Source of the DNA: Ktedonobacterales bacterium
Lineage (GTDB): Bacteria > Chloroflexota > Ktedonobacteria > Ktedonobacterales > JADMIN01
Direction of reading: 5' to 3'
NCBI GenBank assembly: GCA_036378295.1
Contig: DASUWS010000232.1
Location: forward strand, 10,387 to 74,386
DNA: 64,000 nt
Shown: in pieces, positions 4,715 to 64,000 of the stretch
Numbering within the stretch: the stretch's first letter is position 1
Layout: each line of letters opens with the position of its first letter
Notes under the pieces: generated by a model
The model's database searches: none
What the model was told of the DNA's origin: nothing
What the model saw: only the letters and a program-made list of their open reading frames with translations
Position numbers and translations under genes: made by a program

Positions 4715-5245
4715 TACATCGCCTTTCCGTGTGAGACGACCATACGCGCACCATCTGTCGTTCGCAACTGCTCAGCCGAAGACTTCACGTTGCACAAGAC
4801 ATGCCATGTCTCGCTGGATGATCGTGTTGGGATAGCCGGCTGTGGCATGCATCTCGGTATATTAGGCATATGGACGCTCACGCTGGCTCGCCCACTCTAC
4901 CTGGAACATCCTAACAAGCACTCTCCATGCCTTCTGCTATGAGGGCCTCGCCTCCTCCCTCCTCTGTGCCACAGAAAGCATAAAACCTCACGCACGGCCT
5001 CCTAGAGCACCACACGCTCCTCAAGTAGACTTGCGACGGGAAGGGCCAAGTGCACAACGCCTAGCCCCATGTCAAGCGGACCACGTCAATCTCCGGCCCA
5101 AGCTCCAGCGTATCCTTCCTTCCATGCCGACAATAACAGGCATGGATGCGGAGCGACGCGATGAGCACACCTGGCACAAAGCATGCACCACGTTGATTGC
5201 CATAGCCCAACGGGAAGAAGGCCAGCCCCGGAAGGGAGAACCCGT

Positions 5246-6883
5246 ATGCCAGCGTATCCCGCCCCAACACCTCACGCCAACACCACCCACCAGCTTGCGT
5301 CGCTGACCGCTGGACACAGGGTAATTGTCGCGAGCAATCGCGGTCCGGTCGAGTTTTACTATGCGCGAGATGGCCACCTCGCAACGAAGCGCGGTGCGGG
5401 CGGCGTGGTCACTGCGCTGGCCGCCTTGGCGCGTGATGTGCCGCTCACCTGGGTCGCGACGACGATGACCGCCGCCGATCGCGAGGCGTTCTCGGAGGCA
5501 CAAGCTTCAGCCCGCACCGTGCGCATCGGCCACCAGCCCCTCCAGGTGCGCTATGTTCCTGTTCCCCCGGAGATGTATCGACGCTACTACGATGAGATCA
5601 GCAATGAAATCCTCTGGTTTCTTCAGCACTACATGTGGAACCCAATCCGGTGGCCCACCTTCACTAAGGAACACGTCCACAGCTGGGATGAGGGATACCG
5701 CTCAGTCAACGAAGCGATCGCACGCGCAATTGTGGACGTGGCGCTCTCGGGCGCCAGGCACCAGCAACCCGATCCATTGGTTCGTGCGGAGCATGCCAGC
5801 GAAGGTGGCGCAAATAGCATCGTGATGCTGCAAGATTACCAGTTGTACCTCGTCTCCGCGCTTGTGCGCGCCCGTCTTCCCCGCGCGACCATCGAGCAGT
5901 TCATCCATATTCCCTGGCCAGCGAATCGCTACTGGGAATTTCTGCCCAGTCGCTTCGTTCACGAGATCTATGAGGGACTTGCAGGGAACGATGTCCTTGG
6001 CTTCCAAACGGTCAGCGACATGCGGAACTTTCTGGTGGGCGCGCGCGCTTTCCTGGCAGGGAGCCGGGTCGACTTCGACCGTCAAACCGTGGTGTGGCGG
6101 CGCCACCGCTTGCTGGTGCGTGTCTACCCGATTCCCACTGATGCGAGCGAGATCAGGCGCACACTTCTCTTGGCACCTGCGCGTGCGGGCGCACGAGAAC
6201 TGGGCGACCTCCTTGGCGACAAGCGGCAGGTCATCATGCGGGTGGATCGGCTCGACCCAAGCAAGAATATCGTCCGTGGATTCCTGGCTTACGAAACGCT
6301 GTTGCGCCGCTGGCCCGAGTTACGCGAGCAGGTCCACTTCCTTGCGTTCCTCATCCCTTCACGCCAGAGCCTGCCGATCTACCGCGCTTACCAGCGCGAG
6401 GTGCGTGATGTGATCCGCCGCATCAACACACAGTATCGCACCGAGGACTGGCAGCCCATCGTCGCCTTCTTCGAAAACAACCGCCCGCGCGCCCTGGCAG
6501 CCATGCGCCGGTATGATGTGTTGCTCGTGAACTCCATCATCGACGGAATGAACCTGGTGGCCAAAGAAGGACCAGCGGTCAACGAACGTCATGGCGTGCT
6601 CGTGCTCTCGCGCACAGCGGGAGCATTTGAACAACTCGCTGAGGTGGCGTTGCCCATCACCCCTACAGATATTGACGAGACAGCGACCGAGCTCTACGAG
6701 GCGCTACACATGTCAGACCACGAGCGCACACGACGGGCCGAACAAGCGCAAGCGATTGTCGAGGCGGAGACTCCGGTGGATTGGATGCTCGCACAACTGC
6801 GGGATGCCCTCGCGCAGCGGCGTGCACCGTCTCGTCACCCATCACCGCGTACCAGGCAAGCGCAAGACGTTCCGGTGTCATAG
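5246..6883 (+). CDS. otsA: Alpha,alpha-trehalose-phosphate synthase (GT20)
   Basis: The translation shows VIVASNRGPVEF, GGVVTAL, ISNEILWFLQHY, LQDYQLYLV, IHIPWP, RVDRLDPSKNI and DGMNLVAKE. The ATG at 5246 is preceded by GGAAGGGAG. Confidence 0.9.
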   Translation: MPAYPAPTPHANTTHQLASLTAGHRVIVASNRGPVEFYYARDGHLATKRGAGGVVTALAALARDVPLTWVATTMTAADREAFSEAQASARTVRIGHQPLQVRYVPVPPEMYRRYYDEISNEILWFLQHYMWNPIRWPTFTKEHVHSWDEGYRSVNEAIARAIVDVALSGARHQQPDPLVRAEHASEGGANSIVMLQDYQLYLVSALVRARLPRATIEQFIHIPWPANRYWEFLPSRFVHEIYEGLAGNDVLGFQTVSDMRNFLVGARAFLAGSRVDFDRQTVVWRRHRLLVRVYPIPTDASEIRRTLLLAPARAGARELGDLLGDKRQVIMRVDRLDPSKNIVRGFLAYETLLRRWPELREQVHFLAFLIPSRQSLPIYRAYQREVRDVIRRINTQYRTEDWQPIVAFFENNRPRALAAMRRYDVLLVNSIIDGMNLVAKEGPAVNERHGVLVLSRTAGAFEQLAEVALPITPTDIDETATELYEALHMSDHERTRRAEQAQAIVEAETPVDWMLAQLRDALAQRRAPSRHPSPRTRQAQDVPVS

Positions 6884-7053
6884 TCTGTGATAGTCATTCA
6901 TGGTCGTATCCAGGTCCAGGAGAACTCTCGGAACTCCCGTACTGGGCAGGCAGGGATGGCCATGCGTCAGATTCGAGCGATGGCCCATTCGTGGTCTGCC
7001 CCGCCTACCGCTAGGTCCAGACCCACTGGAGGCCAGCCTGGAAGGGATCATAT

Positions 7054-7087
7054 CCTCTCTATTCTCATGCTCAAGAGAATAGAGAGG
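7054..7087. terminator. Perfect 13-bp hairpin between convergent otsA and the SDR gene (bidirectional terminator candidate)
   Basis: CCTCTCTATTCTC (7054-7066), an 8-nt loop, then GAGAATAGAGAGG (7075-7087). Confidence 0.55.
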
Positions 7088-7139
7088 CAGCGGCGCCACT
7101 CACATCGCTCGGGCATCAGCCAGGTGGTACGTCACTGTA

Positions 7140-7937
7140 TCACTCCGCCGCGATGCCACCATCTACGAGGAAGAGCTGGCCAGTGGCGAAGCTGGAGGCG
7201 TCGGAGGCGAGATAGAGCGCGATCCCGGCAATCTCATGCGGCTGTCCGGTGCGGCCCATCGGCGTCGCCTGCCGAATCGCATTGCCGAAATAGGGATGCT
7301 CCAGCACCCCAGCGGTCATATCGGTGGCGATGTAGCCCGGCGCGATGGCATTGACACGCACGTGATGCCTGGCCCATTCGAGCGCGAACGTGCGGGTGAG
7401 CTGCGCGACGGCAGCCTTGCTCGCGCCATAGACAGCCATGCGCGGAGTGCCCACCACCGAAGCGACCGACGCCAAAGTGATGATCGAGCCGCCGCCCTGC
7501 TCAGCCATCCGCGCGGCAATGTTGGTGCAGAGGAAGAACGTTGCCTTGACGTTGGTATCCATGATCGCGTCCCACTCGTCCTCGGTGACTTCGGTGCTGC
7601 GCTTCCAGATGGGGCTGATACCCGCATTGCTGACCAGCACATCAACGCGATCAAAGGCGTGGTAGACCTGCTCAATCGCCTGTCGCATCTCATCCAGCTT
7701 CACCAGATCAGCCGTCACCGTGATCGCTCGCCGTCCGCGTGCGCGCACCTCATCCGCCACCTGCTCCAGCCGTTCCGCCGAGCGCGACACCAACGCCACA
7801 TCCGCGCCCGCATCAGCCAGTGCCAGGGCGATCACTCGCCCCAGCCCACGGCTCGCACCCGTCACCATCGCACGTCGCCCGGCCAGCGAAAACTGGTCAA
7901 AGACGCTCGGAATCTTCTCAGGTGTGTCCTCAGCCAT
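7140..7937 (-). CDS. Short-chain dehydrogenase/reductase (SDR) family oxidoreductase
   Basis: Present are the TGASRGLG cofactor motif, NAG, the catalytic YGASKAAV (YxxxK) and the C-terminal LFLVDGG. Confidence 0.9.
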   Translation of the reverse strand: MAEDTPEKIPSVFDQFSLAGRRAMVTGASRGLGRVIALALADAGADVALVSRSAERLEQVADEVRARGRRAITVTADLVKLDEMRQAIEQVYHAFDRVDVLVSNAGISPIWKRSTEVTEDEWDAIMDTNVKATFFLCTNIAARMAEQGGGSIITLASVASVVGTPRMAVYGASKAAVAQLTRTFALEWARHHVRVNAIAPGYIATDMTAGVLEHPYFGNAIRQATPMGRTGQPHEIAGIALYLASDASSFATGQLFLVDGGIAAE

Positions 7938-9339: not shown

Positions 9340-10596
9340 CTATCTGGAGCGAAGCGCAACCAGAGCCTCGTCGCTTTCCGCTTCCACCCGCCGCAGCCCA
9401 AGGAGAGCCGGTGACATAAGCCCGAGCAAGCCGGTCAACACGCATGCGAGAGCGGAGAGACCAATAACCAGAGGCGCTGAGCCCACGCCGAGCAGCAATC
9501 CACCTACTACTGCCCCAAGCGGCGCCGCTGCCGTGGTGAGGGTCGAACGCGCGCCAAAGAGGCCGCCACGAATGTGTTCTGGAACCAGCCGCTGCAAGAG
9601 TGACGTTTCGATTGCTGTATACGGTGCCCATGCACAGCCAGCGAGTGCCAGGAAGAGCATTGCCAATGGGAGTTGATGGAGAACTATCAGGGGGCTGAGC
9701 AAGGCTCCCCAGAGAACCGCGATCCCCGCAAGCAGGAGCCCTGGACGATGATAGCGCGCCACCAGGGTCGTTCCCAGTGCACCAATTACGGCACCAACCC
9801 CAAATCCCGTCCAGAGCAGGCCATAGCCAGTAGCCCCCGCGTGCAATATTGCCTGATTATAGACTGGCAAGGCGGCTTCCAGGGGGCCGTAGGAGAAAAA
9901 GAAGATAGCTGCCAATAGCGTGAGGGCGCGCAGATCTTTTCGGGCAAAGAGCAGCCCAAACCCCATCCAGCGTCCTCCAGAGTGCGCGCGGTTTCTGTCG
10001 TGCTGGCGTGGGATGTTGGGAAGCGTGAGCACTAACAGCCCCATGACGACAAAGCTCGCGGCATCAATGAGCAACGCCCAGGGTCCCCCCACCGCCGCGA
10101 CAACCACTCCCGCGATGACAGGACCGGCGAGAGCGGCAAACTGGAGATTGAATGAAGAGAGAGCGTTAGCCTGATCCAGTTCACTATCGGGCACGAGTGC
10201 GGGGAGCATGACCCGCACGCCAATCATCGTCACAGGCGAGAGCGCCCCGGCGCAGAGGGCCAGGACATAGATTTGCCACATCTGGAGAACACCCAGCGCA
10301 TTGAGGATCGGTACGAGCGCTATCACAAGCGCGCGCAAGAGATTATCGGCCCCCATCAGAAGACGCGGCTGCAGGTGATCCAACAGACGGCCGAGAAGGG
10401 GTCCGGTAAGGACGGCGGGCAACTCGAAACACAGAACGACGAGACCGACTATGGTGCCCGAACCCGTCAACTGCAAGACAAACCACAGGAGAGCGATAAC
10501 AGTGAATTGATCGCCAAAACGCGAGATGGCTTGTCCAAGCCAGAGGCGCAGATAGTCCCGGCGTCGCAGAGGAGAGGAAGGAGGGATGAGAGGCAC
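9340..10596 (-). CDS. MFS transporter (EntS/MFS_3-like, 12 TM)
   Basis: 418 aa and hydrophobic throughout. The N-terminus reads RRRDYLRLWLGQAISRFGDQFTVIALLWFVL, typical of the MFS_3 family. Confidence 0.8.
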   Translation of the reverse strand: MPLIPPSSPLRRRDYLRLWLGQAISRFGDQFTVIALLWFVLQLTGSGTIVGLVVLCFELPAVLTGPLLGRLLDHLQPRLLMGADNLLRALVIALVPILNALGVLQMWQIYVLALCAGALSPVTMIGVRVMLPALVPDSELDQANALSSFNLQFAALAGPVIAGVVVAAVGGPWALLIDAASFVVMGLLVLTLPNIPRQHDRNRAHSGGRWMGFGLLFARKDLRALTLLAAIFFFSYGPLEAALPVYNQAILHAGATGYGLLWTGFGVGAVIGALGTTLVARYHRPGLLLAGIAVLWGALLSPLIVLHQLPLAMLFLALAGCAWAPYTAIETSLLQRLVPEHIRGGLFGARSTLTTAAAPLGAVVGGLLLGVGSAPLVIGLSALACVLTGLLGLMSPALLGLRRVEAESDEALVALRSR

Positions 10597-10853
10597 AGCG
10601 TGCTTCCACCTTTCTGTCTGTCAGATATGCTCAGCCATCTTCGGGCCTGCTGTATCGATGCTTCTCTATGATAGGTTTCCTGGAGTGCCTGCGCTCCCCG
10701 GCAACACCTGTCCATGGCCAGGTTGCCGATGCTTTTGTCTTCATCCTCATGCCATAAACACTCGCACAGGCAGCTATGGACCATGAATATGACGAGGCTT
10801 GATTTATGATATGTGACATGATCGCACAACACCGTGAGCAATTCACAAGTGGT

Positions 10854-10859
10854 TATAAT
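10854..10859 (+). promoter_or_regulatory. Consensus -10 hexamer TATAAT upstream of the second MFS gene
   Basis: TATAAT at 10854-10859, then GAGGAGG at 10872-10878, then the GTG at 10883 or the ATG at 10889. Confidence 0.4.
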
Positions 10860-10882
10860 CTCCCGGAGTGTGAGGAGGCATA

Positions 10883-12196
10883 GTGGGGATGCTTCGCGTC
10901 TTGAGGCGGCCACAACTGGCACTGCTCTGGAGCAGTCAGGTGCTCTCGGCCATGGGCGATTATCTCTATACTATCGCCGTGCTCTGGATGGCGGTGCGGG
11001 TTGGCGGAAGCCAGGCAGGACTGGTCGCGGCGGCGGAATGGGGCGCGGCGCTGGCGTTCGGCCTGCTGGGTGGGGTCTATGCCGACCGCTGGAACCGGCG
11101 CACGGTTATGATCTGGACGGATGTCCTGCGCGGCGTGGTAGTGCTGGCACTGCCAGTGCTGGCCCATTTTCAAGCGCTGCATATCTGGCAATTCGTGATC
11201 GTGGCGATCCTGCTGGGCAGCGTCGGCACGCTCTTCGATCCCGCGCTACAGGCGAGCCTGCCCGCGCTCGTTGGTGAGACGGATACCCTCCGGGCTGCCA
11301 ACGGGCTGATGGATTTGACACGCCGCCTCGCCCGCGCCATCGGCCCCAGCACTGCTGGCCTCCTGATCCTCTTTTTGCCGCTCGAACAGTTCTTCACGCT
11401 GGATGCCATCAGCTTTGGGCTATCGGCGGTGGCTGTGCTCGCGCTGGGCAGCCGCTATGCCTGGAAGCCAGAGCGGGCAGCGGGCGCGCATCGCGGCCCA
11501 CGAGGAATTGTCGCCGATATCGCTGGGGCGGTGCGACTGGTGGTAGGACGTCGCGCGCTGACATGGATGCTGGCGGCTCTTGGCATCATCAACGGCTTAT
11601 GGTCAGTCGCGTTTACGCTAGGCACACCGCTGCTGGCGCAGCAAGCGCTCCATGAGGGAGTGGGCGCGTACGGATTGATCGTGGGCGCGTACGGCGTGGG
11701 AAACGCCGTAGCGAATCTGATAATTGGTAGCCTGCCTGGGCGTCGTCCCGTCATCTCGTTCTTTTCGGGTAAGCTCGTGCTCGGCGCGGGATTCCTGCTG
11801 GTGGCGAGCGCGCCTGTCCTCTGGGTGGCGCTGCTCGGTGCGGCCATCGCAGCGATAGGCGGGCCGATGGGTGATATTCCACTGGCGACCATGCTCCAGA
11901 CCGATCTGCCCGCGGGACAGCTTGGCAAAGTCTTCAGCCTCCGCGCAACCCTCAGCAGCGCGGGCGTCTTTCTCGGCACTCTGATCGCTGTGCCACTCTT
12001 CGCCCATGTAGATGTCCGGGTGGGGATCGCGCTCGCGGCGGCGCTCATGGTGACGCTCGGCGTTGCCGGGCTGGCGCGATTCTGGCCGGGAGAAGCGGTC
12101 GCCACAGAACAAAAGCGGCAGCAACTGGCTACCAACCCTGGTGAGGCCCTTCAGCTTGCAGAGGTCATCGAGGGCGAGGATGAACTGGTGAGATGA
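10883..12196 (+). CDS. MFS transporter (EntS/MFS_3-like), paralogue of the divergent neighbour
   Basis: 437 aa and hydrophobic. The N-terminus reads LRRPQLALLWSSQVLSAMGDYLYTIAVLWM and includes GGVYADRWNRR. The alternative start is the ATG at 10889. Confidence 0.8.
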   Translation: MGMLRVLRRPQLALLWSSQVLSAMGDYLYTIAVLWMAVRVGGSQAGLVAAAEWGAALAFGLLGGVYADRWNRRTVMIWTDVLRGVVVLALPVLAHFQALHIWQFVIVAILLGSVGTLFDPALQASLPALVGETDTLRAANGLMDLTRRLARAIGPSTAGLLILFLPLEQFFTLDAISFGLSAVAVLALGSRYAWKPERAAGAHRGPRGIVADIAGAVRLVVGRRALTWMLAALGIINGLWSVAFTLGTPLLAQQALHEGVGAYGLIVGAYGVGNAVANLIIGSLPGRRPVISFFSGKLVLGAGFLLVASAPVLWVALLGAAIAAIGGPMGDIPLATMLQTDLPAGQLGKVFSLRATLSSAGVFLGTLIAVPLFAHVDVRVGIALAAALMVTLGVAGLARFWPGEAVATEQKRQQLATNPGEALQLAEVIEGEDELVR

Positions 12197-12461
12197 TAGT
12201 GTGCCCTATCTCTGGCATCTTGCTGACAGCGCTCGCGTAGGTTGTCGTTGATGCTCATGGTGTTCAACCGTTGTGCAATCAATGCTCAAGCCAGCATGTT
12301 AGACAGATTTAGGCAGACCTTCAGGCCGCCCCTGCCACATCTGCAACTCTGCGGTGCAACGTGGCGTAGCCTTCACATGCTACAAATGTAGCGCGGCAGG
12401 ACAGCGGTACTGAAGGGAATAGCATCCAGACCAGAAGAGCATCAATGGAGGATATGTCGCT

Positions 12462-12800
12462 ATGGCGCAGATCATCAACACGAGCGAATTGCCTGGCAGC
12501 ACGTCGCATAAGTTCGAAGGCTATCGCTTTGGCGATGTTCACGTCTCGTTCTTCGTATCATCGACCCCACCGGGGCAGGGTCCCTCACTCCACAAACACA
12601 CCTACGAAGAGGTATTCGTCGTCTACGACGGGACGCTGACCTTCACCGTCGGCAATGAGTCTGTCGAAGTGACCGGTGGCCATATCGTCATCGTTCCGCC
12701 CGAAACGCCCCATAAGTTCACCAACACTGGCTCGGAAATCGCGCATCACGTCGATATTCACACCAGCGGCCAGATGGTGCAGACCTGGCTTGAGGAATGA
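12462..12800 (+). CDS. Cupin domain protein
   Basis: 112 aa with the cupin motifs GPSLHKHTYEEVFVV and GHIVIVPPETPHKFTN. Confidence 0.8.
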   Translation: MAQIINTSELPGSTSHKFEGYRFGDVHVSFFVSSTPPGQGPSLHKHTYEEVFVVYDGTLTFTVGNESVEVTGGHIVIVPPETPHKFTNTGSEIAHHVDIHTSGQMVQTWLEE

Positions 12801-13073: not shown

Positions 13074-13946
13074 ATGACAACATCCCCACAGGGCGATCAG
13101 AACACCCAGAACTCACAGAGCACGCCAGGCTCTCATGGCTATGTTGCCGTGAACGGCCTGAATATGTACTACGAGATGCACGGCACTGGCACTGGCACTG
13201 GGAGCGGCAGTGACGTTCCGCTGGTGTTGCTGCATGGCGGGATGTCGGCAACGGGCACCTCGTTCGGCAAGCTGCTGCCCGGGCTTGCCCAGTCGCGCCG
13301 CATCATCGCCCTCGAACAGCAGGCGCATGGCCACACTGCCGACATCGACCGCCCACTTTCCATGGAGCAAATGGCGGACGACACCGCTGCCGCGCTTCAG
13401 CAGCTCGGCATCACGAACGCGGACATTCTCGGCTATAGCGTGGGCGCTGGAATTGCTCTGCAGGTCGCCATTCGACATCCAGAGATGGCGCGCAAGCTGG
13501 TGCTCATCTCGGTCACGTACAATAGCGCGGGACTCCATCCTGGACTTCAGGAGGGCATAGCGAACGTGACACCCGAAGCCTTCGCGGGCACCCCGTTCTA
13601 TGAAGAGTATCTGCAGATCGCGCCACGCCCAGAAGATTTTCCGAGGCTGGTCGAGAGGATGAAGCACCTGGATAGTCAGGTGCAGGATTGGCCCGCCGAA
13701 GCCATCCAGGCCATCAAGCCGCCCGTCCTGCTCATCATTGGCGACTCCGATATCATCCGGCCTGAGCATGCCGTCGAGATGTTTCGGCTGCTTGGCGGTG
13801 GTGTGATGGGTGATATGGCTGGCCTGCCCAACTCACAGCTCGCCATACTCCCCGGTACGACCCATATCACGGTGGTGCATCGCGCCGATTTGCTGCTCAC
13901 TATCATCCCAGCATTCCTCGATGCACCCATGCCTGAACCCAGATAA
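13074..13946 (+). CDS. Alpha/beta hydrolase fold protein
   Basis: Present are PLVLLHGG, the nucleophile elbow GYSVGAG, and a late GDSD...H pair. The RBS AAGGAG lies upstream. Confidence 0.85.
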   Translation: MTTSPQGDQNTQNSQSTPGSHGYVAVNGLNMYYEMHGTGTGTGSGSDVPLVLLHGGMSATGTSFGKLLPGLAQSRRIIALEQQAHGHTADIDRPLSMEQMADDTAAALQQLGITNADILGYSVGAGIALQVAIRHPEMARKLVLISVTYNSAGLHPGLQEGIANVTPEAFAGTPFYEEYLQIAPRPEDFPRLVERMKHLDSQVQDWPAEAIQAIKPPVLLIIGDSDIIRPEHAVEMFRLLGGGVMGDMAGLPNSQLAILPGTTHITVVHRADLLLTIIPAFLDAPMPEPR

Positions 13947-58266: not shown

Positions 58267-58495
58267 ATGTAGATGGTTCAGTAGTTCGCAGCAATCAGAG
58301 AGCCGGGGATGGCGCTGCCTGGTATACTACCCGAAAGTACTGAAGATATCCCGATGGACCGGTTCCTGATGGCACCATTAGGTGTTCTTAACCATAACCC
58401 TCCATGGGCAGCGGTCTCCGAATACTTGTTTTTTTTCGCGATGGTTGAGACGTTCCGCGCGATATTATGGCCCGGTGAATTGAGGTGCTTCATTG

Positions 58496-60496
58496 ATGGC
58501 TCAGGCGAAAAAAGGTGCGCGACGACGGTTGCCACTTTCGGCACGGCTGACTTTGCTCGTGCTCTTTGCCGCACTCATTCCGCTGGCAGCGGTTGTCGGC
58601 ATCAACGATTATTTTGCGCGCGGAACCCTGCTGAACCAGGGCCACGCCGCACTCTCCACCGATGCCAACGCCAAAGCGACGCTCGTTCAGACCTATATCC
58701 GCGAGCGACTACTCGATGGTCAGGCGCTGGCATCACTGCCCACAGCAATATCGATGCTGGCATGTATTGACCTGCCCACGCCGCCACCAACGCTCGCCTG
58801 TGATACACAGGGCATCCTGTACAAAGAATCGTCACAGCGTGCGCTTGCCGTGGGCATGGTGCGCGACAGCAACTATACCCTGTGGAGCATCTACGACGCC
58901 GCTGGCCATATGCGGTTGACCTCCAACACTGATGTCCAGAAGAGCGCTCCGCCGCCAACGAAAGATGACCTCGATCAGGTGCTCAAGCAGGGCAAACAGC
59001 GCGTGTCTCAGGTTTATTATGATCCGGCGACGAGACACGCGTTTGTGCGGCTCTACACTCCCATCACCGCCCTTGATCCCGCCACGACCAGGCCGACAGG
59101 GCCAGCTCTGGGCTTCCTGCAGTCAACGATCAATCTCGACTACGTTTGGAATATCGTCAACGGGGAGCAGGGGCTGAATGGCACCGGTAGCTATGCCTTC
59201 ATGACCGATGAGAACGGCATCGTGATGGCTGATCCGAACCAGAATGACCTGTTCACCGCGGTGCTTCCGCTGGGTGCCGACACGCAGAACCAGATCACCA
59301 GTGAGAAGCGCTTCGGGACAACCAATCAAGTGCAGCAGCGTGTCTTGCCAGGCGTCCAGTCGTCGCTTGCCTCACAGAAATCAGAGGATACATTCGAGGG
59401 TATCGCGCAGCCCGGCGCCAGCGCACAGTATCAGTTCGTGCGGGTGCGGCTCAAGGAGGTGCCCTGGTCATATTTCGTGCTCAGCCCCGTCGCGACAGTG
59501 ACACGAGTGGCCGACGACCAGATTCGCACCTCGCTGCTCTCCGCCGCAGTCATTGCCATCGTGGCCATACTCATCGGTCTCTTTGTCGGCAACCGGACCA
59601 CACGCCCGGTTCGCGGATCGGTCGATGAGCTGCAAGGCGCCGCCGCCGCGCTGAAGGAGCTGGCCTCGCGCCAGGAAGGCTCCGCTGGCGAGCAGCACTG
59701 GGTGGTAGACGCCTGTCGCACTGGCCTGGAGAGTATCCGCTATCTCTCGGATGCGATGAATCAGGCTGCCCACCGCATCATCGACGCCAGCAACTGGTTC
59801 AATGACTACTGGGACCGTCTGACCGAAGATCAGGCGCGCCGCACGGTACAACATCTGACGGAGTTGGCACACTACATCGACGAAGCCGCGAGCCGGCAGC
59901 AGGCAAGCAACGACCGCATGGATAAGGCCATTACGGTGACACAGCAGGTGTCGGATCAGCTTGTCTCGGGCGCTTCGGCAGCGAATCGCAGCGCCAGCCA
60001 GCTTGAGCAGGTCGTGGATGATTTGCAGCATCTCGTGGGTGGCAGCCACCAGCCGAGCCAGATGCCGAGAGGGAACACACCCGGCGCTGGCATGCCTGGC
60101 GGGCGTTCGCAGCCAGTCGGGGCGCCATCCACTCGCCCCGGCGGGAGCCGCAGTCAGATGGGTGGCCAGATGGGTGGCCAGATGGGGCGGGCGCCGCAGG
60201 CTCCGGTTCATTTCGGCCAGATGGACCCCAGGGGGCCAACGAGCCAGCGAGGCGGGCCGCCTTCCCAGCGTGGTGGGCCACCATCCCAACGCGGGCCTGG
60301 TGCGCGTTCATTCCGTAATGCGCCCAGCCAATTTGGTCCGCCCGATGGTTATGGCAACGAGTATGGGCCAGGTGGACCACGCTCCAGAATGCAACCGGGC
60401 TATGGCAATGAGCATGGTCCGGGCGGTCCCCGCTCCAGGATACAGCCAGACGACCAGTGGGGCGCTCCCGCCGGCACGGGCTGGGATGATCGCTGA
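58496..60496 (+). CDS. Membrane sensor-like protein: N-terminal TM, Cache-like periplasmic domain, second TM, coiled-coil (MCP-like) region, G/P/Q-rich repetitive tail
   Basis: The TM helices are LTLLVLFAALIPLAAVV and LLSAAVIAIVAILIGLFVG. The extracytoplasmic region runs about 300 aa. The cytoplasmic heptad-rich segment lacks the conserved MCP hairpin. The tail carries GGQMGGQMG, SQRGGPP x2 and a 17-aa repeat, GYGNE(Y/H)GPGGPRSR(M/I)QP, x2. The ATG at 58496 lies 8 nt after GAGGTG. Confidence 0.6.
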   Translation: MAQAKKGARRRLPLSARLTLLVLFAALIPLAAVVGINDYFARGTLLNQGHAALSTDANAKATLVQTYIRERLLDGQALASLPTAISMLACIDLPTPPPTLACDTQGILYKESSQRALAVGMVRDSNYTLWSIYDAAGHMRLTSNTDVQKSAPPPTKDDLDQVLKQGKQRVSQVYYDPATRHAFVRLYTPITALDPATTRPTGPALGFLQSTINLDYVWNIVNGEQGLNGTGSYAFMTDENGIVMADPNQNDLFTAVLPLGADTQNQITSEKRFGTTNQVQQRVLPGVQSSLASQKSEDTFEGIAQPGASAQYQFVRVRLKEVPWSYFVLSPVATVTRVADDQIRTSLLSAAVIAIVAILIGLFVGNRTTRPVRGSVDELQGAAAALKELASRQEGSAGEQHWVVDACRTGLESIRYLSDAMNQAAHRIIDASNWFNDYWDRLTEDQARRTVQHLTELAHYIDEAASRQQASNDRMDKAITVTQQVSDQLVSGASAANRSASQLEQVVDDLQHLVGGSHQPSQMPRGNTPGAGMPGGRSQPVGAPSTRPGGSRSQMGGQMGGQMGRAPQAPVHFGQMDPRGPTSQRGGPPSQRGGPPSQRGPGARSFRNAPSQFGPPDGYGNEYGPGGPRSRMQPGYGNEHGPGGPRSRIQPDDQWGAPAGTGWDDR

Positions 60497-60524
60497 TCGC
60501 CAATCTTGCTCATCTCCGACCTCA

Positions 60525-60550
60525 CCCCCTCCCCCAGTACAGGGAGGGGG
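60525..60550. terminator. CCCCCTCCC/GGGAGGGGG hairpin + T-rich tract between convergent genes
   Basis: A 9-bp perfect stem with an 8-nt loop, followed by TTGTCTTTAGGCTTCTTTTG. Confidence 0.75.
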
Positions 60551-60571
60551 TTGTCTTTAGGCTTCTTTTGG

Positions 60572-62107
60572 CTACAGCCAGGTAGAAGGGAGGAAGAGTC
60601 TGCGCCGCAGATGCTCGTAGCGAAAGGATATCTTGCGCTCCTGGAGTTCCGGTGGAGGTGGCACGAGCGGCTGCTGCCAGTACCAGGGTCGAATGAAACG
60701 CTCGCCTTTGTCCGCGGCCTGAAGCGCCAGAAGCCACTCTTTACGCACCTCTGGGGAGTGTGCCGACGCTCCTGACCAGAGCAAGTGGAAGACATTCGCC
60801 GCGCGAATCATCTCCGAGAGTTGCCGCTCGTAGTTGACCCCAGCCTCTAACAAATCGTCGTGGTAGGAGATGATGCCCAGCTTCTCGTACGTTTCGCGGG
60901 CCTGGCGCATCGCCTCGCGGTCGCGGTGGCTGTAGGAGATGAAGACCGCATCGAAGGCGTTGCTGGTGACGGCAACTCCATGCGGAATATTCAGCGATAC
61001 GGTGGAGGCGCCGGAGCGAAACGAAAACGAGACGTCGATGGTGCAGATAGGCGAGACACGCTCGGCATAGATGTCGATCCAGCCGCGCTGTATTGTTCCA
61101 GCCAGATCCTGCGCTCCCGAGTAGCGGAAGAGCGAGCGGTGCCACTCCCCGCGCCAGATGAAGCTATCCTGCGCGGGCGAGAAGGTGACGCCCGCCATAT
61201 GAGGCTCGATGGTGAGCTCGACATTGCGGGCAATCTTGCGCAATGACTGCCCCAGCGCCACCACCGGCGCGCTGCCCAGCTCAGTAAATGTTCCGGCGTC
61301 CTGTTGCACCTGCACGAGCTGCGCTGGAAGGTGGGTGTAGACCAGCAACGTTTGTGGCGCCACCACTGGCGTCGCATTGGGATGATACGTGGAGAATTGC
61401 AGCGTTTCGGCCGCCGGTGATGGGCCACCGTATGCTCCCGGAGGCGCCGCAGGTTGCGCGCCCGATATGTCTGGCAGTCCGCCAGGAGCATGCGGAGGGG
61501 GTGCGGCTCGTGGCGCGGGCGGGGGTACAGCGCCTGGCGCGGGTGGTGGCGGGGGCGCGGCGGGTGGTGGTGCTGCTGGCTGCTCAGGGTAGGGCGCGGG
61601 TGGGGCAGGCGGCTCCGGGGGCTCTGGGGGCGCCGCTCGTGCCCGTTCTTCTTCTATGGCGGGCCAGTCATACTCTTCTACCTCTTCTACGGACGGCGCT
61701 TCCACACTCTCCGGTGCTGGTGGCGCTGGGAACTGGTCCGCGCGTGTGGGGGCGAAGATCATGGCGGCAAGTTGCTGTGGTGAGAGGTGTTCAGCGTTGA
61801 TGAACCGCCATTCGACCATCTCTAGTGAGAGCGATGTCTGCCGAATCGCCACGGCCATCAAAGCGGTATCCGCAAGCGACGAGGAATCCGCAAGCAGCCG
61901 GACCACTGATGGCGAGGTGAGCAGCTCAGGAGACACCAGCGTGATCACCATACTGTAGTGCGCAAGCGCATCAGTATCGAGCGCGAAGAACGTCACATTG
62001 TCGCGACGATCAAATACGAGATGCGGTACATAGATCTGTGCCGCCGTGATGAAGGACTCCGCGAATTGCTTATCCTGACTGGCATGGATGACCAGAACTC
62101 CCGCCAT
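60572..62107 (-). CDS. Two-TIR-domain protein: N-terminal degenerate TIR-like domain, proline-rich linker, beta-rich middle domain, C-terminal TIR_2 domain
   Basis: The C-terminal domain reads AVFISYSHRDREAMRQARETYEKLGIISYHDDLLEAGVNYERQLSEMIRAANVFHLLWSGASAHSPEVRKEW, which follows the TIR_2 pattern and keeps Glu at the catalytic position. The N-terminal domain reads VLVIHASQDKQFAESF...VITLVSPELLTSPSVVRLL, the same topology with Leu in place of the Glu. The linker is about 70 aa of P/A. GGGAGGG lies 6 nt upstream of the ATG at 62107. Confidence 0.75.
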   Translation of the reverse strand: MAGVLVIHASQDKQFAESFITAAQIYVPHLVFDRRDNVTFFALDTDALAHYSMVITLVSPELLTSPSVVRLLADSSSLADTALMAVAIRQTSLSLEMVEWRFINAEHLSPQQLAAMIFAPTRADQFPAPPAPESVEAPSVEEVEEYDWPAIEEERARAAPPEPPEPPAPPAPYPEQPAAPPPAAPPPPPAPGAVPPPAPRAAPPPHAPGGLPDISGAQPAAPPGAYGGPSPAAETLQFSTYHPNATPVVAPQTLLVYTHLPAQLVQVQQDAGTFTELGSAPVVALGQSLRKIARNVELTIEPHMAGVTFSPAQDSFIWRGEWHRSLFRYSGAQDLAGTIQRGWIDIYAERVSPICTIDVSFSFRSGASTVSLNIPHGVAVTSNAFDAVFISYSHRDREAMRQARETYEKLGIISYHDDLLEAGVNYERQLSEMIRAANVFHLLWSGASAHSPEVRKEWLLALQAADKGERFIRPWYWQQPLVPPPPELQERKISFRYEHLRRRLFLPSTWL

Positions 62108-62286
62108 GGGAACCCTCCCTTCGCACCGCTTCAGAGGCTCTTTAACTTCCAGGGACAAGCATGCGACGAGGTTGGAGCGGTGTCAAGGGCTGGCGAGTAT
62201 CCACGCCGAGCGCGCGATGCGACGGTGGACAGACCACGCGCCACTGCGTGATCAAGGCATTGTTATGCTCCTCCGCGTTGTGCCTC

Positions 62287-64000
62287 CTATACAGGCGGCG
62301 GGAAGTGGCGGTTACGTCCGCCGCGCGGCCAGGTGACGCGCCCATACCGGGCGGGCTTTTCTGTGCCTGCACGGTGGTTCGTACCGCTCGTGTGCGGCTG
62401 TTGCTCGTCAGCAGCCTCGGTGACGGCCTGTTCCTCATCGGGCGTAGTTGGCCTGCTGTTCGGCTTGCTGCGCGACAACTTCCGCGGCCGTACTAGCCGG
62501 GCAACGTTGCCGATGGCCCCCGATGGCTGCGGCTCGCGGGCGACTGCCTGTTGTGGGCTGGTGGCGGGCCAGCCCTCTGACCAGCGGATCGCGGGCAAGA
62601 GCACCGTAAAGGTGCTGCCCTGGCCCGGCTGACTATGTACCGAGATCTCGCCCTGGTGCGTCTCGGCAATCCATTTGCCAATCGCCAGACCCAGGCCGCT
62701 GCCCTGCTGATCGCGAACGCGCGCCTGATCGGCGCGATAGAAGCGCTCGAAGATATGTGGCCGCGCCTCCGGCGGGATACCAATGCCCGTATCGGTGATG
62801 CTAAATGCGGCAAGGTTGCCATTGCGGCTCACGGCGATACGTATCTTGCCCCCCGCCGGCGTGTATTTGATGGCGTTATCGATCAAAATCACTGCGAGCT
62901 GCCGGAGTTGTCCCGGATCGCCCAGCACGGTCACTGGCTCCAGATTGAGCACGGAGAAGTGGATATTCTTGCGGCGCGCCTCGACGAGCGCCTGACCCTG
63001 ACGGAAGACCTCCATCGCCAGTTGATCCAGCTCCACGGGCTCGCGTCGTCCGCGAAGCTGGTCATCAAGCCAGTTTTCGCGCAGGCCATACTTCGCGCCG
63101 TCGGCGGCATCGACCCGCGCCAGCAACAGCAGGTCATTCACCAGCGCGGCCATGCGCTCGGCCTCGCCGTAGCCATCTTCGAGCATCTCCTGCCGATCCT
63201 CGCCAGGCAGATCGGGCGCCTGGCGCAGGAAATCGAACGTCGTCTTGATGGTGGTCAGCGGGGCGCGCAGCTCATGCGACGCGTCTGCGACAAATCGGCG
63301 TTGCGCGCTTGAGACACGCTCGAGAGCTTCGAGCATCTCGTTGAAGGTCACGACCAGCTCACCGATCTCGTCGCGCGGACCCGAATAGTTCACGCGGGTA
63401 CCCAATCCGGCGCGGTGGGCGCTAGCGGCAATTGCGCGGGCTGCGCGCGTGACCGATGAGACCGGGCGCATACCGCTTTCGGCGATAAACCAGCCGCCTA
63501 TCAGCGCAAAGAGCACAGCAATAATACTGCCGACGATGAGCAGACGACTGAGCGTGTTGAGCGCGCTATTCATGTCATCGAGCGGCTTGGCGACCAGCAC
63601 TACCCCGATAACCTGCTGTGAGGCAGTGTTCGGAGAGATCGTGGCCGTGGGCAGCGCCGTATCTGTGGGGCTGCCAACGTTACTCGACGAGCCAGCTGTA
63701 CCTGTAGGATTGCCAGCATCACTCGGCGAGCCAGCGGCAGGAGGAACGCTCGCGTCCGCGACCGTGATCGGCTGGACGTAGATGGCCAGCAGCGAGCCTG
63801 TATTGCCTGGGGCGGGCGCGGTATACATGCCCGGGGTTCCCTGCAATGCCTGATCGATCACCGGAACATTCAGCGGCAAGCCAACATCCTTGATCACAGG
63901 CGCGACAAATTTCGTAGTGCCCTTGACATTGAGCACTTCGAAGGGGAGGTCGATACGCCCCAGCACACCAGCCCTGCTCTTGAGTATATTCTCGATCTTC
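62287..64000 (-). CDS. Sensor histidine kinase (HAMP-HisKA-HATPase_c), N-terminus beyond the window edge
   Basis: Present are the H-box FVADASHELRAPLT, the N-box LIDNAIKYTP, G1 DTGIGIP and G2 GSGLGLAI. A TM helix plus a HAMP region reads LLIVGSIIAVLFALIGGWFIAESGMRPV. The frame stays open to position 64000. An unusual tail of about 100 aa follows the ATPase domain. Confidence 0.9.
   Translation of the reverse strand, partial: KIENILKSRAGVLGRIDLPFEVLNVKGTTKFVAPVIKDVGLPLNVPVIDQALQGTPGMYTAPAPGNTGSLLAIYVQPITVADASVPPAAGSPSDAGNPTGTAGSSSNVGSPTDTALPTATISPNTASQQVIGVVLVAKPLDDMNSALNTLSRLLIVGSIIAVLFALIGGWFIAESGMRPVSSVTRAARAIAASAHRAGLGTRVNYSGPRDEIGELVVTFNEMLEALERVSSAQRRFVADASHELRAPLTTIKTTFDFLRQAPDLPGEDRQEMLEDGYGEAERMAALVNDLLLLARVDAADGAKYGLRENWLDDQLRGRREPVELDQLAMEVFRQGQALVEARRKNIHFSVLNLEPVTVLGDPGQLRQLAVILIDNAIKYTPAGGKIRIAVSRNGNLAAFSITDTGIGIPPEARPHIFERFYRADQARVRDQQGSGLGLAIGKWIAETHQGEISVHSQPGQGSTFTVLLPAIRWSEGWPATSPQQAVAREPQPSGAIGNVARLVRPRKLSRSKPNSRPTTPDEEQAVTEAADEQQPHTSGTNHRAGTEKPARYGRVTWPRGGRNRHFPPPV

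Follow-up and report, generated by a model that had tools for sequence, protein, structure and literature searches.

We identified a protein with two TIR domains on a contig of a Ktedonobacterales bacterium, of which a stretch of 64,000 nucleotides was analyzed (hereafter the window). The protein is encoded on the minus strand (60572..62107) and consists of a degenerate N-terminal TIR domain, a disordered Pro/Ala-rich linker, a beta-sandwich domain, a C-terminal TIR domain and a short conserved tail. The beta-sandwich and the C-terminal TIR domain form an obligate module. Judging from sequence comparisons, the unnamed middle domain appears to be the most informative part of the protein and the hallmark of a large, unannotated TIR family in soil bacteria. 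By analogy with characterized TIR proteins, we consider the chance about even that the protein is a self-contained TIR effector which is controlled by oligomerization and which carries a non-catalytic, regulatory TIR domain in cis.

The beta-sandwich-TIR module

The AlphaFold2 model of the full-length protein was based on an alignment of 85 sequences and has a mean predicted local distance difference test score (pLDDT) of 80 and a predicted template modeling score (pTM) of 0.43, at which the packing of the domains against each other is not readable. Three domains are predicted with confidence: an alpha/beta domain (residues 1-120), a beta-sandwich into which one helix is inserted (residues 233-365) and a second alpha/beta domain (residues 386-490). 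A search of the PDB with this model in Foldseek returned SPARTA TIR-APAZ, AbTir, SARM1, MyD88 and RPP1 at a probability of 1.00 (AbTir with a root-mean-square deviation of 1.9 A over 94 columns) and also the RPS4/RRS1 heterodimer (4c6t); the output does not say which of the two TIR domains of the query was aligned. Pfam recognized one domain in the protein, TIR_2 (PF13676), which covers residues 388-484 (52.3 bits, with the cutoff at 28 bits; E=1e-13), in agreement with an earlier note on this DNA, made from the sequence alone, which had found that the C-terminal domain fits TIR_2. No match was found in NCBIfam. In a phmmer search of the PDB with the whole single sequence nothing but the low-complexity, Pro-rich linker was matched, and profiles were therefore needed for the comparison with the PDB.

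The middle domain (residues 233-365; 61013..61411, minus strand) was modeled on its own with a pLDDT of 89 and a pTM of 0.80, as a beta-sandwich of the immunoglobulin-like (Ig-like)/E-set type with one inserted helix. It had no sequence match in Pfam, NCBIfam or the PDB, and its structural neighbors were generic Ig-like/E-set folds only (PapD/Caf1M chaperones, CARDB and transglutaminase N-domains), with weak matches (TM-score about 0.4, best E=7e-3). The sandwich is followed by a loop of low confidence (residues 366-385; 60953..61012, minus strand; pLDDT <50 at residues 368-382) that is variable in the alignment. The earlier note had described an uncharacterized, beta-rich middle domain of about 150 residues. 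Its nature was described correctly, and the size divides into a sandwich of about 135 residues and a loop of about 20.

An exhaustive search with a profile of the beta-sandwich was performed against 1.84 billion cluster representatives (clusters at 50% identity). This search matched 2,841 cluster representatives, 1,915 of which at E<=1e-10. Of the 137 best new matches, 131 have the same TIR subtype directly after the beta-sandwich; in the remaining six the protein ends within 90 residues of the beta-sandwich match and looks truncated. Since a TIR domain adjoins the beta-sandwich in 131 proteins and the other six are apparently incomplete, we conclude that the two domains constitute an obligate two-domain module. 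The module is characterized by the motifs FxSYSHxD, FxLxWS, S-x5-EW-x2-AL and F[IV]xP-x2-W together with the conserved tail, all of which are present in the query. The query scores 228.6 bits with the hidden Markov model (HMM) of the middle domain and 165 bits with the HMM of the C-terminal TIR domain, the alignments of both HMMs including the query itself.

The domains found beside the module in a sample of 63 proteins were mostly of a signaling type: Ser/Thr kinase in 19 (about 30%), FHA in 5 and DUF4062 in 5, with WD40, TPR and HSP70 also present. Individual module proteins carry T2SSE, zinc ribbons or a TIR-STAND(NPHP3_N) prefix, and an extra upstream TIR domain, as in the query, was found in 4 of the 131 module proteins. 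In one protein of 1378 amino acids (P0094, encoded on a 1.12-Mb NCBI contig) two modules (residues 296-573 and 1044-1318) flank a Ser/Thr kinase domain (residues 617-829). The named sources of module proteins are Pyrinomonadaceae and Thermoanaerobaculia (Acidobacteriota), Polyangiaceae, Planctomycetota and Ktedonobacterales; the taxonomy of the module was better served by the exhaustive search and the wider-family seed, as a word-indexed search mostly returned fragments. One of the matches (P0244, 264 amino acids, from a Logan assembly) is a fragment that is 99% identical to the middle domain of the query, indicating that the same or a very close organism was sampled independently.

Module proteins are named only 'TIR domain-containing protein' or 'hypothetical' in the databases. 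PADLOC models cover the TIR or kinase parts of module proteins only and none covers the beta-sandwich. The strong PADLOC matches of the wider family (PD-T4-6, mad6, MkoA and PglW) were rejected as evidence on the module, as they arise from the kinase domains. No description of the beta-sandwich-TIR module, of a bacterial double-TIR protein or of TIR proteins of Ktedonobacteria was found in the searchable literature. The view that the architecture had not been described was borne out to the extent that nothing like it was found in Pfam, NCBIfam, PADLOC or the literature searched.

The C-terminal TIR domain (residues 386-490; 60638..60952, minus strand) is predicted to be the catalytic one. Its profile matches plant TIR, Cat1, SPARTA and SARM1 chains in the PDB. 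In the profile alignment the segment 'S-x-E-V-R-K-E-W' of the C-terminal TIR domain lies over 'S-R-W-C-L-D-E-L' of plant RPV1/RUN1, the Glu of which we take to be the catalytic Glu of TIR NADases, and Glu457 (codon 60737..60739, minus strand) aligns at this position. Glu457 is kept in 218 of 220 related module TIR domains, in which FxSYSHxD, D417, G423, FxLxWS, S451, A461-L462, P474 and W477 are also conserved. The sequence evidence suggests that the C-terminal domain is probably an active TIR.

The TIR domain is followed by a tail (residues 491-511, 'RKISFRYEHLRRRLFLPSTWL'; 60575..60637, minus strand) which is 86% identical among orthologues and in which I493, S494, F495, Y497, L500, R502, P507, T509 and W510 are invariant. 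The tail reads 'RKISFRYEHLRR..PSTW' in the query and a related 'LRRLHFQR' is found in the wider family. Among syntenic orthologues the ratio of nonsynonymous to synonymous substitution rates (dN/dS) was 0.34 for the N-terminal TIR domain, 0.40 for the linker, 0.22 for the beta-sandwich, 0.16 for the C-terminal TIR domain and 0.075 for the tail, values which are rough because dS among the orthologues is near saturation (0.8-2.1). The tail is the most constrained segment of the protein.

The N-terminal TIR domain and the linker

The N-terminal domain (residues 1-120; 61748..62107, minus strand) was modeled by AlphaFold2 as a confident alpha/beta fold (pLDDT mostly >90) with five strands alternating with helices; the range aligned by Foldseek is unspecified for this domain too. 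The N-domain of the query itself has no match in Pfam, and a direct hhalign comparison of the N-domain profile of the query clade with the profile of the C-terminal TIR domain was not significant (probability 0.5%). Together with a homologue (P0075) that has a true receiver domain at the same position, these results would fit a generic flavodoxin-like or receiver-like domain which resembles a TIR domain only in its beta-alpha layout.

As the direct comparison was not significant, homology was shown through intermediate N-domains. The N-domain profile of the query clade matches the other N-domains of the family with a probability of 98.2% (E=5e-14, 113 columns), and these other N-domains match the profile of the C-terminal TIR domain with a probability of 97.6%. 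Individually, 26 of 38 homologous N-domains match TIR_2 in Pfam and some also match ThsB_TIR, TIR or DUF4062, while the family N-domain profile matches solved TIR structures (Cat1, PdTIR, TcpB and AbTIR) with E-values from 1e-7 to 3e-5. In addition, the strand-helix motif 'LLSPeAL-SP-v' of the query clade is in register with canonical 'SxWVxxE' copies. On these profile comparisons the N-terminal domain is clearly assigned as a TIR domain, by transitive homology only, and a flavodoxin-like or receiver-like identity is very improbable.

In the hhalign register against a canonical N-terminal TIR domain ('SSEWVRQE'), Leu71 (codon 61895..61897, minus strand) takes the position of the catalytic Glu and Ser67 that of the Trp in WxxxE. 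The N-terminal TIR domain is without the catalytic Glu of NADase-type TIR domains. The two TIR-type domains proposed in the earlier note, one with the catalytic Glu and one with Leu instead, were recovered in the profile registers as Glu457 and Leu71. A census of the catalytic position in 64 N-domains gave V19, D19, L12, E8, A2, I2 and Y1; the residue is hydrophobic in 35, Asp in 19 and Glu in 8. A canonical 'SxWVxxE' N-domain is present in some relatives (P0014, P0044 and P0076), and the N-domains closest to that of the query are hydrophobic at this position, except for the Glu-bearing P0014 and P0017.

The N-terminal TIR domain is connected to the module by a disordered linker (residues 121-232; 61412..61747, minus strand; pLDDT 42-74, no secondary structure) which consists of 36% Pro and 22% Ala and varies in length and sequence across homologues. 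The linker had been estimated at about 70 residues and measures about 110. Within this otherwise variable segment, WPAIEEER (residues 148-155; 61643..61666, minus strand) may be a docking motif. The corresponding pattern W-x(0-3)-[ILM]-E-[EQ]-E-R is present in the linker of 25 of the 64 full-length family members, orthologues and paralogues alike.

In the query clade the N-terminal TIR domain is under relaxed constraint and evolves about as freely as the linker. Other members of the family have a receiver (REC) domain (P0075), TPR, GAF or a kinase in its place. One syntenic orthologue (L011, contig CAVRAI010000001.1, about 9800-10963) consists of the linker and the module, has no N-terminal TIR domain, and has stops in all frames upstream. 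If the assembly is correct, the N-terminal TIR domain is dispensable in this lineage. The exchange of N-terminal domains, the orthologue without an N-terminal TIR domain and the dN/dS values together suggest that the module is the constant, effector-like core of the protein and the N-terminal TIR domain an accessory input.

The gene, its family and its neighborhood

The gene is a complete coding sequence on the minus strand (60572..62107) and encodes 511 amino acids followed by a stop codon. The open reading frame that contains it (60572..62158, minus strand) opens at a TTG codon. The ATG at 62107 is the true start and not the upstream TTG, because a Shine-Dalgarno-like GGGAGGG (62113..62119, minus strand) is located 5 nt upstream of the ATG and the homologues begin at the same Met. 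The protein opens directly with the first strand of the TIR domain, the model shows no helix before it, and the protein is probably soluble and cytoplasmic. Downstream, a terminator-like GC-rich hairpin (60524..60551; 10-bp stem with 8 GC pairs and a T-rich tail on the plus strand) sits between the convergent stops of the dCache-like gene (60496) and the TIR gene (60572) and is a likely terminator, plausibly shared by both genes. A scan for sigma-70 promoters found none between the histidine kinase and TIR genes, a result that is not informative in this phylum.

The full-length family has 93 matches (best E=9e-181), and nearly all of those with an organism name are from Ktedonobacterales metagenome-assembled genomes (MAGs). 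Only 11 loci were found in 185,579 species-representative genomes. Orthologues share 64-77% identity in the module with the query and paralogues 43-61%, and both types can be present in one MAG (orthologue L011 and paralogue L015). At one orthologous locus (L008, contig CAVPDP010000023.1, 10001-11608) the gene contains two frameshifts, both inside the Pro-rich linker, and was called as a fragment of 301 amino acids (P0015). The frameshifts are possibly long-read homopolymer errors rather than signs of a real pseudogene. Two further members (P0020 and L016) come from MAGs labeled 'Nitrososphaerota archaeon' and 'Proteobacteria bacterium'; they lie on short contigs (5.7 kb and 2.7 kb), are 55-73% identical to Ktedonobacterales proteins and are probably binning errors and not true occurrences.

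Domain annotation of the window confirmed the neighbors that had been named before, a dCache-like sensor protein, a DUF4388/PatA_N protein and a HAMP-HisKA-HATPase histidine kinase. An NTP-transferase, a dual-specificity phosphatase, an ArsR regulator and an inositol-1-phosphate synthase (Ino1) are located farther away. The same block is found at the orthologous loci: a response regulator, the histidine kinase and the TIR gene, and then, on the opposite strand, the dCache, PatA_N, NTP-transferase, dual-specificity phosphatase, ArsR and Ino1 genes. This synteny is based on eight orthologous loci compared by sequence, six of which are long enough to span the block, and on P0018 by gene-call annotation. 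The flanking proteins at the orthologous loci are 67-94% identical to those of the window.

The window copy of the histidine kinase (62287-63966, minus strand) is 559 amino acids long when read from a GTG near the edge of the window and the orthologous kinases are 695-719 amino acids long, so that its true start is uncertain; the response regulator gene found upstream in relatives would fall beyond the end of the window. The dCache-like protein (58493-60496, plus strand) reaches 24 bits, less than the Pfam cutoff of 45, and gives weak coiled-coil-type matches to ZorA/MotA models. It ends in a tail of about 130 amino acids rich in Gly, Pro, Gln and Arg with near-repeats 'GYGNE[YH]GPGGPRSR[MI]QP', and it is kept at 71-75% identity in all full-length orthologous loci.

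The conserved neighborhood raises the question whether the protein is a non-enzymatic TIR scaffold or adaptor, similar to MyD88/Mal. Both TIR domains would then make contacts between proteins and so couple an output to the two-component system next to the gene, to the dCache protein or to the PatA_N protein. The TIR gene lies directly downstream of the histidine kinase gene in the same direction (about 180 bp separate the two here, and 88 bp in L001), and this arrangement is kept in all orthologous loci. Classical signaling domains (Ser/Thr kinase, FHA, REC and GAF) are joined to the module across the superfamily, and in this family a Glu replaces the aromatic residue of WxxxE. Against such a role, Glu457 and a dozen residues around it are almost invariant in thousands of divergent proteins, which looks like the pattern of an active site and not that of an interface. 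The paralogues (43-61% identical) and the distant members have no histidine kinase, dCache or PatA_N gene beside them, and synteny with flanking genes of 67-94% identity can be simple inheritance. The promoter and terminator evidence does not settle whether the kinase and TIR genes are co-transcribed. Overall, we regard a scaffold function as unlikely, and rank it first among the alternatives.

No recurring neighbor was found at the loci of paralogues or of distant module proteins that were examined. The idea that the dCache, DUF4388 and histidine kinase proteins are functional partners was rejected as unsupported, as they are absent beside every paralogue and every distant module protein examined. 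The earlier note had suggested that these neighbors could point to a signaling role; they are probably not partners of the TIR protein.

A role in defense was weighed as well, in which the protein would be an antiphage or abortive-infection effector, either ThsB-like with a receptor encoded elsewhere or a single-gene infection sensor that depletes NAD+. Bacterial TIR proteins with the catalytic Glu are mostly known from defense systems. The PADLOC model SAVED_TIR matched the query with E=6e-6 in its TIR part alone (positions 11-97 of the 404 in the profile), and no SAVED domain was found in the query by Pfam. The ThsB models of PADLOC gave no significant match (best E=0.0075 and 0.024, covering 37-60 residues). 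Further points in favor are the paralogue expansion within one genome (L011 and L015 in a single MAG), the STAND-fused members in the wider superfamily and the neighborhoods of two paralogues, described below.

Against a defense role, the orthologues lie in a stable block of signaling and sugar-metabolism genes, and no defense or mobile genes were found in this block at the orthologous loci examined. The gene evolves at about the rate of its neighbors (module identity of 64-77% against 67-94% for the flanking genes), and no PADLOC model covers the beta-sandwich. As had been stated before, no recognizable partner gene is nearby: the window contains no ThsA, SIR2, SLOG or Macro partner and no other TIR gene, and no ThsA-type gene (SIR2 or Macro with SLOG) is present among the 14 homologue loci with called genes listed. 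A SAVED or Ago partner was likewise found neither here nor near any homologue examined. The orthologue clade of the query has neither the variable location nor the defense or mobile neighbors of a defense island. The antiphage framing of the earlier note did not survive for this gene, since its orthologues occupy a fixed, syntenic block without defense genes, a pattern of the kind that the note itself had named as a refutation. We consider a defense role, with an unlinked partner or as a single gene, decidedly unlikely and rank it after the scaffold. From the comparison of loci, the double-TIR gene appears to stand alone and to be inherited vertically in an uncultured lineage of Ktedonobacterales, and not to belong to a multi-gene defense operon.

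Some loci of the wider family look different. One paralogue (P0049, locus L005) has an upstream gene for a DUF4062-AAA_16-TPR protein of the STAND type (940 amino acids; 5038-7860) and a downstream gene for a TIR_2 protein (317 amino acids; 11725-12678), a neighborhood that resembles a conflict system, unlike that of the query. A recent report describes DUF4062 as a family of TIR-like NADases (bioRxiv 10.64898/2026.05.01.722283). The paralogue at L004 adjoins a WYL regulator and an IS605/TnpB element. With these suggestive neighbors, the wider family may or may not have a role in defense. Near a distant module protein (P0090, locus L021), genes for a small protein that matches NADase_transloc (PF25302) and a PnuC-type NMN transporter are present (10279-10695 and 13160-13900), which could be a hint of NAD metabolism or a coincidence.

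Proposed mode of action and comparison with known TIR systems

Known TIR enzymes have to self-associate before their active sites can form and are under the control of attached sensor domains, and for this reason we propose that the module is an assembly-dependent, NAD+-processing unit. In the proposed mechanism, several copies of the C-terminal TIR domain would come together in composite active sites and then cleave or convert NAD+ or a related nucleotide. The beta-sandwich would be an integral helper of the TIR domain, serving as an assembly interface or a ligand site and not as a swappable sensor, while the domains N-terminal to the module (kinase, FHA, TPR, WD40, STAND NTPase, REC, GAF or another TIR) would be the input that controls assembly. 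In the protein described here this input would be the second TIR domain on its flexible linker of about 110 residues, most likely a non-catalytic surface for TIR-TIR interaction. It may act in cis, by capping or inhibiting the C-terminal TIR domain, or in trans, by nucleating assembly. A regulatory role of the N-terminal TIR domain is suggested by analogy with plants, in which the inactive TIR domain of RRS1 controls that of RPS4.

Several observations weigh against the proposal of an oligomerization-controlled effector and call for caution. The similarity of the C-terminal TIR profile to solved TIR domains is weak by sequence (<=25 bits, E>=1.7e-4). The aromatic residue of WxxxE is replaced by Glu453, four residues before Glu457; this position is Glu in 73 of 81 Ktedonobacterales family members, compared with Phe/Tyr in 104 of 139 wider-family members. 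The substitution may indicate that the chemistry is altered or that catalysis is absent. A Glu at the catalytic position is necessary and not sufficient, because TLR-type TIR domains keep a WxxxE-like motif without NADase activity. The role given to the beta-sandwich is a guess, since it has no informative structural neighbor. The arrangement of the domains cannot be read from the full-length model (pTM 0.43), and the dN/dS values are rough. The N-terminal TIR domain still folds confidently in AlphaFold2 and may, on this model, retain an unrecognized function. The substitution at Glu453 and the weak similarity to characterized TIR proteins are among the main reasons for our caution.

A broader and more tentative proposal, which we hold to be doubtful, concerns the module as a whole. 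It might represent a new and widespread class of TIR enzymes of soil Chloroflexota, Acidobacteriota, Myxococcota and Planctomycetota in which the beta-sandwich is part of a composite catalytic or ligand-binding unit. Such enzymes would be gated by eukaryote-like phospho-signaling through Hanks kinases and FHA domains or, as here, by a pseudo-TIR domain in cis, and would produce an NAD+-derived signal or deplete NAD+ in developmental or stress signaling and not only in phage defense.

TIR domains play a central part in the immunity and the cell death of animals, plants and bacteria, and their activity is set by what is attached to them. The subfamily described here comprises at least 2,841 clusters (50% identity) from several soil phyla and has a constant partner domain without a Pfam, NCBIfam or PADLOC model. 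The domains to which it is connected are mostly Ser/Thr kinases, FHA and similar signaling domains and not known defense sensors. Work on one member could uncover a new mode of control over TIR catalysis and indicate whether TIR proteins have housekeeping or developmental signaling roles in bacteria, and a putatively active and a degenerate TIR domain in a single chain would offer a simple system for studying how a pseudo-TIR domain regulates an active one. For the gene itself the meaning is more modest: it appears to be a vertically inherited, lineage-specific TIR protein and not an evident defense system.

Compared with known systems, the C-terminal TIR domain is similar to the TIR_2 NADases AbTir, TcpB/BtpA and PdTIR, with which it shares the FxSYSHxD first strand and the Glu at the catalytic position; the N-domain profile of the family matches these structures as well. 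These proteins differ in having a coiled coil or nothing N-terminal to the TIR domain, whereas the C-terminal TIR domain of the query is preceded by the beta-sandwich and followed by the conserved tail. The query family also has ExxxE instead of WxxxE, and its sequence similarity to any solved TIR domain is weak. Thoeris ThsB, too, is a bacterial TIR protein that stands alone and has the catalytic Glu, and its models match the query weakly over the first strand and helix. Unlike ThsB, however, the query has no adjacent ThsA or receptor gene, does not lie in a defense island and carries a beta-sandwich and a second TIR domain.

In TIR-SAVED/Cap, SPARTA TIR-APAZ, TIR-STING, TIR-STAND/Avs and SARM1, the TIR output is governed by an attached input domain, as is proposed here. 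The TIR domains of SPARTA and SARM1 are the best structural matches of the query, and some members of the wider family carry STAND-type NTPase domains. The query differs from these sensor-fused proteins in lacking SAVED, APAZ, STING, NTPase and ARM/SAM domains, and its beta-sandwich is found in none of those systems. Dictyostelium TirE (PMC13142454) also has two diverged TIR domains in one polypeptide which are incompletely recognized by Pfam HMMs. TirE is unlike the query in being eukaryotic, in having RCC1 repeats and in carrying its TIR domains directly in tandem, with no beta-sandwich or long linker. The plant RPS4/RRS1 pair, which is among the fold matches (4c6t), resembles the query in combining a Glu-bearing TIR domain with one that has no catalytic Glu. 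The plant pair consists of two separate proteins of the NLR type (with nucleotide-binding and leucine-rich repeat regions) encoded by paired genes, whereas the query is one chain in which about 110 residues of disordered linker lie between the two domains. On the broader, doubtful proposal made above, the protein would be a single-chain bacterial counterpart of the active and inactive TIR pair of plants.

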